Of a DNA stretch of 64,000 nucleotides, positions 1,477 to 5,161 are shown piece after piece; position 1 is the first letter of the stretch; every line of letters begins with the position of its first letter. The notes beneath the pieces are model-generated. The model saw only the letters and a program-made list of their open reading frames with translations. It was not told the origin of the DNA and did no database searches. Position numbers and translations under genes: made by a program. Source of the stretch: Candidatus Latescibacterota bacterium (GTDB lineage: Bacteria; Latescibacterota; UBA2968); the NCBI GenBank assembly GCA_965198115.1, contig OZ240241.1, positions 1,536,001 to 1,600,000 on the forward strand, written 5' to 3'.

Positions 1477-2850
1477 GAGCTATAATCAAAAGGTGTGGAA
1501 AAAGAGAAAGGGCGACCCTACCCTTCCCGTGAGATAGTTGATTCACACAAAACCGGGTGAGAGGCCCGGTTGGGAAGGAGGATCGCCGTGAAGGAACATA
1601 CGCATAGAGCCCCATTGAAGTCCATGCCGACGTGGGAGACGGTTGACGATTGGATCCGTGAAGAGATCCAGGGCCGGTTCCAGTCCATTCTGGAGGAGGA
1701 GGCGACCGCGTTCTTGGGCCGGTCGTGGTATGAGCGCCGAGCCGAGGTCGATAGCTCCAGGGGCTACAGGAACGGCTACGGCAAGCCCCGGCGTCTCTCG
1801 ACGAGCTGCGGAACGATCAAGGTCCGGCGTCCCCGGGTTCGTGGTCTGGAAGAGCGGTTTGAAAGCCGCATCCTCCCCCTGTTCGCCCGGAGAACCAGGG
1901 CCATTGGAGATCTGCTTCCCGACCTTTATCTCCACGGTCTCTCCCAGGGCGACTTCGAGTTGTCTTTGCGTGCGCTGCTCGGTGATGGCGCGCCGCTTTC
2001 GCCGACCTCGATCGCTCGTCTTCGAGGGAAGTGGGAGGTCGACTTCCAGGACTGGAAAGAAAGGCGTCTGGATAATCGCGAACTGGTCTACGCCTGGGCT
2101 GATGGCATCTACGTCAAAGCCGGGCTCGAGCGCGAGAAGGCGTGTCTGCTGGTCGTGATCGGCGCGATGAGCGACGGCAGCAAGGAGATCCTGGCGATAG
2201 AACCCGGTTATCGAGAGTCTACAGAATCCTGGCTCACGGTGCTCCGGGATCTCCGGGATCGCGGGCTCGAACATCCTGTCCTGATCGCCGCGGACGGGAA
2301 TATGGGCATCTGGGCGGCCGTTGATCAGGTCTGGCCAGAGAGCCGGCAACAACGGTGCTGGAACCACAAGATCCTCAACGTGCTCGACAAGGTCGCCAAG
2401 CGTGCACAGGCTGAAGCCCGCGCACTGCTCGTCCAGATCCCCTATGCCGGCACGAAAAAGGAGGCCGAGAAGCTCCGGAAACGCTTTGCCGCACGGTATC
2501 GCTCACAGTTCCCTGCCGCCGTGGAGACGCTCGAAAGAGACTGGGATCGGATGGTCACGTTCTACGACTTCCCGAAGGAACACTGGAAACACCTGAGAAC
2601 CACGAACGTCGTCGAGAGCCCCTTTGCTTCCGTTCGGCTTCGCACAAACGCCGCCAGGCGATTCAAGAAAGTCAGGAACGCCACGACTCTCATCTGGCGT
2701 ACGCTCAAGGTCGCAGAGAGCCGATTCAGGAAACTCACCGCGCCACACTTGCTACAACAAGTCTACGATCAGAAACACTCAACCGGACCGCAGGTCGAAG
2801 CCGGGAAGATGGCCGCCTGATTTCTTTTACACACCTATTGACCTGAGCTC
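1477..2850 (+). mobile_element. IS256-family insertion sequence, copy 1 (1374 bp)
   Basis: Imperfect terminal IRs GAGCTATAATCAAAAGGTGTGG / rc GAGCTCAGGTCAATAGGTGTGT; 9-bp target duplication TTTCCTGAT at 1468-1476 and 2851-2859. Confidence 0.96.
1570..2820 (+). CDS. IS256-family (Mutator) DDE transposase
   Basis: Motifs GYRNGY, VRRPRVR, YLHGLSQGDF, WADGIY, ADG, QRCWNHK, LRTTNVVES. Confidence 0.96.
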   Translation: MGRRIAVKEHTHRAPLKSMPTWETVDDWIREEIQGRFQSILEEEATAFLGRSWYERRAEVDSSRGYRNGYGKPRRLSTSCGTIKVRRPRVRGLEERFESRILPLFARRTRAIGDLLPDLYLHGLSQGDFELSLRALLGDGAPLSPTSIARLRGKWEVDFQDWKERRLDNRELVYAWADGIYVKAGLEREKACLLVVIGAMSDGSKEILAIEPGYRESTESWLTVLRDLRDRGLEHPVLIAADGNMGIWAAVDQVWPESRQQRCWNHKILNVLDKVAKRAQAEARALLVQIPYAGTKKEAEKLRKRFAARYRSQFPAAVETLERDWDRMVTFYDFPKEHWKHLRTTNVVESPFASVRLRTNAARRFKKVRNATTLIWRTLKVAESRFRKLTAPHLLQQVYDQKHSTGPQVEAGKMAA

Positions 2851-3533
2851 TTTCCTGATCGGCCATCTTGTCTGTCTCCTCACGGATTGATACACGACGG
2901 ATGGTCTTTCATCACCCTACCGGATGGCGGTCTACATCGGGAACAGTCTGACCACCGCATTCGGCCTGTTCCTGACCACTCGATTTCTACGAAATACGGG
3001 GTGTTCGAAAGTTGGATCGCTCGTCGCCATCTTGTCCATCATCTTCGCCACTCAGTTGACCTACTACCTCTGGCCAAAATCGGCAACATCTCACGGAACA
3101 TCCTTCGCTACTGTCGCCCTCTTTGCCTGGTCAGCTACGCGGTATGGCATCTCGTGGCAGTCAGGACTCACCGGAGGACTTGCAGCCCTGATGCGGTGGC
3201 AGAATGCGCTGATCGTCTGCCCGATCTCGATTGCACTACACGTAAAGCAGCGCGGAAGGATCTTCGACGCGTCTGATGCTCGAAAATGGGCAGCCTTCCT
3301 TGCAACCGCCCTGCTTGCCCTATCACCTCAAATACTGGTCTGGTGGTCCCTCTATGGTTCTCCCTTCGTAGTACCGCAGGGCGGGAGCTATGTGGATTTC
3401 TCCGATCTTCCGCTAGTGAGGATCCTGTTCAGCCCTCGTCACGGACTCCTCCTGTGGCATCCCATCCTCATCGCAGGACTCGGTGGCTTGGCGCTGGGCT
3501 ACCAAGGGGATAGGCATTGGATCACGGCAATCG

Positions 3534-4354
3534 TGTTACGGCTTACGATAAATTCCCGCCCAGACAACGCTATTCGCATTCTCACGCACCAAGAACTGAC
3601 GACCGGAGATAAGGGAGGATGAACTCTCTGGGCGTCCCGATGTAGACCGCGCCCTTTTCATTTTCCCACACGCGCGAGAAGTAGGCTCTCGAACCGCGAA
3701 AATAGCGCGTTTCGACCGGTTAGGCTCAAGACGTGGCCAGGCCAGGTCCCAGCGGGCATAGGGGGTGCGCGGTGTTGGCCCTGGGCGCGTCGCTGGCCCG
3801 AGGCCCGCACCAGGGGGGTAGGGGGGGTGGAAACGGTCAGCTCTCTTTTTTGGACACCGGTAGTGGACCGTTTCTTCTACTAAAACGTCCTAATTTTCGT
3901 TCCGGGGGGCGCATCGCGGCCGTTGTCGACGAAAGAGGGGTTTTCAGGTGTCGGAAACACTTAAACCAGTGCAAAAACAAGAGCTTGCGTCTGTCGACAA
4001 GGCGGCTTTGAAGGTGCTTCCCGAAAATGGCGAAGCGGGGTAGAAAATCGGCCGTCTCCCTGGCGGTGCTGCCGATGGCGGACCCGTCGGAGGTCGAGAG
4101 CGTTTCGCGTCCCGATCCCCCGGAATGTGCCAAACGCGTTCGCGTAAAGAAAGGGACATCAGGCGTAGGTCCGACAACCGCTTTTGGCCGTTGCGCCTTG
4201 TAAGTACTCCTATGGCACTATGTCGCATGGCCGCCAGATCTTAGGTGACCCTCAACTCATTAGGGAACGGTCTCCACTGTTAACCGTATTGAAACGATTC
4301 TGCCTATTCTGCGAATAGCTTAAGCCGGGCGGAGAATTATCGCAAGGCGTCACA
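3534..4354. mobile_element. Non-autonomous TGT...ACA element (MITE-like, IS21-type ends), 821 bp, no transposase
   Basis: 45-bp imperfect IRs at 3534-3578 and 4310-4354 (34/45 ungapped matches by eye); 7-bp target duplication GCAATCG at 3527-3533 and 4355-4361; interrupts the GT-C frame exactly. Confidence 0.9.
4027..4203 (+). pseudogene. 5' fragment resembling a phage terminase small subunit (58 aa, inside the MITE)
   Basis: Translates MAKRGRKSAVSLAVLPMADPSEVESVSRPDPPEC...; the basic RGRK start and RPDPP segment resemble TerS N-termini of cos phages; lies just downstream of a cos-like motif. Confidence 0.55.
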
Positions 4355-5161
4355 GCAATCGGCATCGCTATCGTGCTTCAATGGGTCATGAACGCCGCCA
4401 TAATGGACTGGTGGGGAACGTGGTCTTTCGGCCATCGGCGGTTCGTCAACCTGTTGCCATTCTTGGCCTGGGGTATTGCGCTCCTCTACGATCGGCTGGC
4501 GGCTCGCCGACGTCTTTTCCTCGTGACCATCGGTTTGCTAGCGGTCTGGAACCAGCTGTTCCTCTATCAATATCAGAACGGGCTGATTCCCCGAAGCAAA
4601 AGCCCCACATTCACGGAGTTTGTGACCGATAAGTTTGGCCTGTCCCGCGTGTGGGAGGCCCAACTCCACGTCAACACGGCGATCACTGCCTTCAGACGAA
4701 ACGACTTCCCTAATTTCCTCAATCAGGCAAACACAGCCTATCGTACGTATCCTGAATACCGCAACAGCCGACTCGTGTATTCCGTGGCCGGTACGGCATT
4801 GCAGGACGGGGAGACGGCTGAATCACTCTTCGCCGCGTGGCATCAAGAAGAGCCGACCAACCTCGTGGCAACGTGGGGTCTGGCAGACGCGTGGATCAGA
4901 GCGAACAGACGCGATGAGGCGGCACGACTTTTTGAACCGAACCTTTGGGGGAAAACCGGCAGGGAAGTAGTCGACTTGATTCGTACGGGTAACGAACCCC
5001 TGATGGATCAGACGTTTTTCAATTTTTACAGGGCAGAGCTCGACTCCGTCTATATTCACTAAGCAGCATCCGTCTCACGCGTCACACTTGACCAGAGATT
5101 GGAAAAGGGGCTTATTCAGACCTCCATCGAGCAATCGTAATCACGAACAACGAGGCGAGCT

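Follow-up and report, generated by a model that had tools for sequence, protein, structure and literature searches.

The window, that is the whole 64,000-nt stretch analysed here, carries at 3534..4354 an 821-bp unit that starts with TGT and ends with ACA and whose terminal arms (3534-3578 and 4310-4354, 45 nt each) are inverted ends with 76% complementarity. The features of the locus are given below, one per line; G000 designates the 8.43-Mb genome to which the window belongs, and G105 another genome, which harbours a Mu-like prophage.

2924..3533, + strand: 5' portion of the host membrane-protein gene split by the element (match to a glycosyltransferase family weak and below cut-off)
3527..3533, + strand: left target-site duplication GCAATCG, direct repeat
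3534..3578, + strand: left end, Mu-like phage type according to the G105-end matrix, with terminal TG and a pair of CG(A/C)TA boxes spaced by about 22 nt
3589..3680, + strand: cos-like segment A, a degenerate HNH-terS spacer with a G run, GATGTAGACCG, a T tract and CGCGAGAAA
3770..3828, + strand: GC-rich block, present in type I copies and missing from type II copies in the alignment
3815..3878, + strand: cos-like segment C, the main variable module, with a left arm of two types among copies
3858..3867, + strand: predicted 10-nt cohesive end, CGGTAGTGGA in the window copy, by analogy with the ends of the phiE125 record
3879..4026, + strand: cos right arm plus the spacer that precedes terS, also present in non-element paralogues at 8.397 and 8.403 Mb of G000
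4027..4131, + strand: start of a terminase small-subunit gene (PHROG 12559 family), truncated after 35 codons
4132..4298, + strand: conserved cargo segment, recovered as far as 4298 in metagenome run X5, where the right end is missing
4310..4354, - strand: right end, Mu-like phage type, sharing AATTATCGCAAG with the late end of the G105 prophage
4355..4361, + strand: right target-site duplication GCAATCG, direct repeat
4362..5062, + strand: 3' part of the interrupted host gene, with TPR at the C-terminus

Excision of the 821-bp unit together with one GCAATCG yields a 447-codon stop-free frame spanning the insertion site, indicating that the element has split a host gene. A sequence-only reading of the window had already described the TGT...ACA ends, the 45-bp imperfect inverted repeats, the 7-bp duplication and the interruption of a gene, and all of these were confirmed. 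The list of open reading frames contains no transposase within 3534..4354; promoter or terminator consensus sequences and the integrase, regulation and replication genes typical of PICIs were also looked for in the element, and none were found. Upstream of the element, this host gene has also received an IS256-family transposase (window positions 1570-2820).

A genome-wide search for further copies, as envisaged in the sequence-only reading, recovered 17 full-length copies of 751-823 bp in G000, which cannot be due to chance, together with an eighteenth copy split by an IS, one left half (at 5,976,093) and two right-end fragments. An exact 7-bp duplication flanks 11 of the 17 full-length copies as well as the IS-split copy; among the remaining full-length ones, two share a single outer duplication, one shows 6/7 matching positions and three are devoid of duplication. 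Several copies disrupt genes. These dispersed, duplication-flanked copies and the missing transposase ORF support the earlier proposal of a transposed element that lacks a transposase of its own. In metagenomic data, considered here as assembled contigs only (runs X1, X5 and X6), both junctions of the window copy are bridged with zero mismatches by contigs of run X1, which may be the source sample and in which the element is covered far more deeply than its flanks. One 733-bp contig of run X6, from another study, reaches both termini and has a middle of 104 letters instead of 257. As for habitat, only one run, with a small share, bears the label sponge metagenome, which does not count as evidence. 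The element was not found by DNA in 40 relatives or by protein in 30 genomes of the family. Neither 50,697 phage records (two short hits only, E 0.2-0.8) nor 72,556 plasmid records (five short hits only, E 0.2-0.8) gave a useful DNA match, and an Rfam search with the element gave none either. The genome of the host is overrun by IS: about 1.16 Mb of G000 consists of repeats with at least three copies, and ordinary IS families reach 145, 83 and 62 copies, so that the copy number of the element requires no benefit to the host.

The ends of the element were compared with a matrix made solely from the two ends of the G105 prophage, whose late end was set at the base where two copies cease to match. 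With this matrix, the best 16 of 16,852,022 positions in G000 are all left ends of the element. Only 12 of the 16,852,022, all of them left ends of the family, score as high as the window left end (3534..3578), and 80 of 16.85 million score as high as the right end. A pattern derived from the four ends of the element and the G105 prophage has 37 matches in G000 and three in G105, the latter all at the prophage ends; the reversed pattern, used as a control, has two matches in 168 genomes. Matrices built from the three IS21 end types resident in G000 leave 385,000 to 5.9 million positions that score as well as the element ends. Taken together, the ranking obtained with the G105 ends and the failure of the IS21 controls indicate that the ends are Mu-like and not of IS21 type. 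The mobilising partner put forward in the sequence-only reading, an IS21 element, is accordingly not supported: its end types score the element ends as background, and a Mu-like transposase was found between two element copies (see below). No multi-copy IS with matching ends is present among the 41 repeat families of G000. The CG(A/C)TA boxes of the left end are putative transposase-binding sites. The end patterns have six matches in IMG/VR, which were screened for terminase context only, and all 27 of the 27 end-pattern matches in metagenomes were dismissed as chance.

G105 contains two or more copies of its Mu-like prophage (L197, L200 and L202), one terminus of which is TG and the other TA. 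TA termini, seen in this relative of the element, also occur in Leptospira prophages (PMC8705779). In genome G004, two solo Mu-type ends (C1:364,609 and 2,568,124; L196 and L199) begin with TA, have about 150 bp conserved and closely resemble the left end of the element, with no partner end or duplication within the 900 bases read.

The single rve match of G000 lies between the element copies at 1,426,120 and 1,437,467. These two direct and identical copies bound an 11.3-kb unit (G000 1,426,120-1,437,467; L003:4120-15468) which contains, in order, the duplication, an element copy, a DUF3102 gene, the transposase, IS debris, an ECF sigma gene, an RNA-polymerase-like fusion, an inverted 138-bp right end, the identical second copy and the duplication. 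The outer duplication is exact and common to the two flanking copies, while their inner flanks form no donor duplication. This layout suggests that the unit is a replicative cointegrate. The transposase, which is paired with DUF3102 and carries the rve domain, matches PHROG 310 (E 3.6e-27) and reaches 70 bits against the IS21 model (cut-off 160). This TnpA retains D154, D240 and E276, which are invariant among the aligned homologues, and is about 80 residues shorter at its C-terminus than the 15 homologues aligned with it, in G000, where it is the only TnpA, as well as in X1 contigs. One X1 contig runs from TnpA to the right end of the element. The TnpA family is present in five of 168 genomes of the phylum, and the G105 homologue (39% identity) is encoded within a Mu-like prophage together with TnpB, portal and terL. 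A search of G000 with 60 G105 ORFs revealed neither TnpB nor Mu late genes; an AAA match at 1,738,312, considered as a TnpB candidate, resembles an ExeA-type ATPase instead. The shortened C-terminus of TnpA and the lack of TnpB and late genes suggest that the partner is not intact now. No ends were found around 13 other TnpA loci. The data suggest that the element was moved by a member of the Mu-like TnpA family found in G000. The 7-bp duplication departs from the lengths known for Mu-like elements, which are 5 bp in Mu and 6 bp in B3 (PMC8705779), and counts against a mini-Mu; for the G105 prophage, no duplication could be paired and hence no length read. The ECF sigma gene of the 11.3-kb unit is single-copy, and the fusion is a protein of 1069 aa that joins RNA polymerase beta- and beta-prime-like domains.

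Judged by its alignments, the interior of the element is phage packaging (cos-terS) DNA. The ORF at 4027 shares 66-69% identity with the first 35 residues of proteins P0003 and P0007, which match phrog_12559 (terS) at E 1.5e-15 and 2.5e-17; the 58-aa ORF of the element taken alone has no match to PHROGs or phage records. This terS is truncated in all 16 element copies compared. A profile of the variable middle matches G000 663,702-663,787 (E 9.4e-4), the spacer which, in a resident HK97-like prophage, separates terS-terL from HNH and a hicAB-like pair. Segment A aligns to the spacers of the resident and Bryobacterales prophages (0/300 shuffles), and the 18-mer of the resident prophage, at one mismatch or less, occurs only in 11 copies of the element. 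Full-length relatives of terS were detected at 10 GTDB loci. All six Bryobacterales loci read have the order HNH, optional insert, spacer, terS, terL, and portal and capsid genes are present in all three of those annotated. The Bryobacterales spacer aligns to type II copies with a score of 95 (shuffle maximum 36, 0/300) and more weakly to the window copy (36-39; 0/300, with one comparison at 1/300). The suggestion, made from the window alone, that the interior holds cos-region DNA followed by the start of terS is thus borne out by the shuffle tests and the PHROG 12559 matches of the terS relatives, and this DNA does map between HNH and terS, in the resident prophage and in the six Bryobacterales loci. 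The hicAB-like pair, recognized by eye, occupies G000 663,087-663,657 (L031:3087-3660), between HNH and cos of the resident prophage.

Other searches for the packaging DNA were less productive. Among the cos patterns run against IMG/VR, one had two matches, both adjoining terminase genes, and three others had one match each, none near a terminase; this sparsity suggests that IMG/VR contains no close donor phage. An HMM of 22 unrelated phage spacers was too weak, since its best match was a paralogue (E 0.71), only four of the 18 matches listed came from the element family and the cos of the resident prophage itself was missed. In three Bryobacterales genomes, a search for stand-alone cos copies found no extra ones, all six matches being full length. 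The truncated terS forms P0003, P0004, P0006, P0007 and P0011 share a new C-terminal junction (HSFYSPMRLRQE-like) and possibly represent sister elements in a related host. In one Bryobacterales MAG, four HK97-like head modules (L140, L141, L142 and L145) are nearly identical and diverge at the predicted cohesive end.

The position of the cohesive end was predicted from phiE125, whose record ends with ...GGGAC-CGCCCGCTTC and begins with GTC; assuming that the record is cut at cos, the 10-nt end would fall at the CG of GACCG. HK97 has a 10-nt 3' overhang (PMC11331095). Among 16 distinct copies, the most diverse 10-column window coincides with the predicted overhang (pi 0.385 versus a mean of 0.049), and the most conserved part of the element is 4132-4298 (diversity 0.006). 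Four predicted overhang types exist among the copies, two of which, CATGTC and TGAGAC, are each combined with either left-arm type and are also seen in non-element paralogues. Recombination affects the whole element (71 informative columns, Rm 15, 0/5000 permutations), with incompatibility among copies at 0.067 within 12 nt versus 0.469 beyond 50 nt; recombination centred on cos was therefore ruled out. The diversity peak and the middle variant of X6 could reflect selection on cos rather than drift. The Bryobacterales prophages vary at the same cos positions as the element copies, and recombination is element-wide; the acquisition of cos variants from diverged donors can account for the peak without invoking selection.

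Candidate cos donors are the paralogues at 8.397-8.403 Mb, among which a longer form has retained an 82-codon ORF that separates cos from terS, and a satellite-like island at a tmRNA gene (5.976 Mb). The latter (G000 5,976,093-5,982,539; L005:6094-12540) encodes an integrase, an AlpA-like ORF recognized by eye and a terS of PHROG 1889, and its far end is the left half of an element in opposite orientation. Three more cos-like segments without Mu ends are found in a decayed island (L001:8800-15500); two are preceded by the same 70-nt repeat and one precedes an 82-aa ORF without Pfam family.

We consider it probable, with moderate confidence, that the element is a natural mini-Mu that captured cos modules, was amplified by a Mu-like transposase acting in trans and carries cos mainly as passengers. 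In such a scenario, two ends of a Mu-like phage would likely have trapped a cos-terS junction, and the TnpA/TnpB of a then-resident or infecting Mu-like phage would likely have copied the unit around the chromosome by replicative transposition. The copies have since exchanged modules, and recombination with cos regions of satellites or prophages, for instance those at 8.397-8.403 Mb and 5.976 Mb, presumably brought in the cos variants. The persistence of the copies would be due to relaxed selection in a genome laden with IS, and the cos modules would likely ride mainly as passengers, given that terS is truncated in 16 copies, that recombination is not confined to cos and that repeats make up such a large part of the genome.

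A more active role is conceivable. The sequence-only reading had proposed that the element hijacks a phage terminase to package itself or flanking host DNA, or serves as a terminase decoy; the checks made on this, an overhang match to the resident prophage and cos pairs at headful spacing, spoke against it or were neutral. The element could be a gene-less natural mini-Mu that borrows the transposase of one phage for its multiplication and fusion with adjacent DNA and the terminase of a second one for cutting and packaging, and that swaps its cohesive-end modules to keep pace with circulating cos phages, which we regard as doubtful. It seems rather unlikely that the element is a double hitch-hiker, spreading within the genome by means of the Mu-like transposase and moving from cell to cell with the aid of HK97-like terminases. 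Cointegrates, e.g., the 10.5-kb unit between identical copies, would then resolve to cos circles packaged like cosmids, and the swapping of cohesive-end modules would maintain the match to circulating phages. Such a lifestyle would agree with the presence of two cos-like modules oriented in the same way as terS, with variation peaking at the predicted overhang, with the combination of the CATGTC and TGAGAC overhangs with both left arms and the paralogues, and with the X6 contig of an independent study, a complete element whose middle differs. In addition, cloned cos sites render plasmids transferable, and a PICI has two cos sites (PMC6739421). However, none of the copies has an overhang identical to that of the resident prophage (best 7/10), G000 has no terL of matching type and the element has neither origin nor integrase. 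Cos terminases also need a second cos to finish packaging (PMC6687093), and the only same-orientation cos pairs less than 100 kb apart are spaced by 10.6, 31.2 (different overhangs) and 6.4 kb, with no matching pair a headful apart in G000; and variation in the donors can by itself explain the peak at the overhang.

An anti-phage decoy appears improbable. The approximately 20 chromosomal cos modules would be bound or cut by the terminase of an infecting phage, wasting heads or breaking the chromosome, and would be retained by the host on that account. The many copies and several overhang types fit this proposal, as does the conservation in the copies of the region matching the HK97 terS site, located 15-29 bp downstream of the cut (PMC11331095). 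Nevertheless, twenty sites would be few relative to the pool of replicating phage genomes, several insertions disrupt genes, and the abundance of ordinary IS shows that such copy numbers need no benefit. We give very little credence to a parent that was an autonomous transposable satellite (Mu-like TnpA, cos and terS), of which the element would be an internal-deletion derivative: the contigs that encode the closest TnpA homologues (P0148-P0156) are 2-11.5 kb long and the tmRNA island ends in half an element, but these short contigs may simply be fragments, and the one homologue read in long context, that of G105, belongs to an ordinary Mu-like prophage with terminase and portal. An IS21-derived MITE, moved by IstA/IstB acting on its ends in trans, is equally hard to credit: the element has TG...CA ends with repeated internal boxes, as in the IS21 family, and a 47-bp right-end fragment at G000 25,523 adjoins an IS21 remnant, but the family of this remnant has a different left end and another repeat intervenes, the element ends match none of the three IS21 types of G000, as the end matrices showed, and the partner transposase is of phage type.

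The element shares features with several known systems. Like bacterial MITEs, it has terminal inverted repeats, a target duplication, many copies and no mobility genes; unlike them (about 300 nt, IS-type ends), it is about 0.8 kb long, with transposable-phage ends and an interior of packaging DNA (PMC11389934). With mini-Mu and mini-D3112 (Mu and B3/Tn552-type), it has in common two phage ends, probably moved in trans, TG...CA termini and a cointegrate-like product, but the cited mini-Mu are engineered and have duplications of 5 or 6 bp, whereas the element is natural and amplified and has one of 7 bp (PMC8705779); its cargo, moreover, comes from an unrelated, cos-type phage. Structurally, the element is a MITE; it would work like a mini-Mu, from which it departs only in the known duplication length. 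Two cos sites and, as predicted for the element, dependence on a helper terminase are also found in the Gram-negative PICI EcCICFT073 (PMC6739421), and, as in PICIs, the cos region is homologous to that of helper-type phages; the element is not itself a PICI, being devoid of integrase, AlpA, replication genes and Rpp and scattered by transposition. Finally, HK97-like cos phages (HK97, phiE125, the resident and Bryobacterales prophages) have the same G run - GACCG - T tract spacer before terS and, with a position extrapolated from phiE125, the same predicted 10-nt 3' overhang, but the element has neither HNH nor terL and its terS is cut after 35 codons.

In the literature searched, from which subscription journals were largely missing, we found neither a natural, amplified mini-Mu with a 7-bp duplication nor a combination of Mu-like ends with cos-terS cargo, and the terms terminase, packaging, cos site and Mu-like do not occur in the main text of a survey of MITEs in viruses (bioRxiv 2024.01.18.576219). 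Even if the cos modules are passengers, the element would represent a natural amplified mini-Mu with a 7-bp duplication, and its copies preserve, as a small archive, cos variants of phages that infect an uncultured host. Were the modules to work, they would offer an answer to two questions raised in reviews: how cos phages transduce host DNA despite the need for two cos sites (PMC6687093), and what gives rise to packaging signals in non-transmissible elements (PMC11389934). Should the double hitch-hiking be true, a cos phage, normally a poor transducer, would carry host DNA between mobile cos sites.
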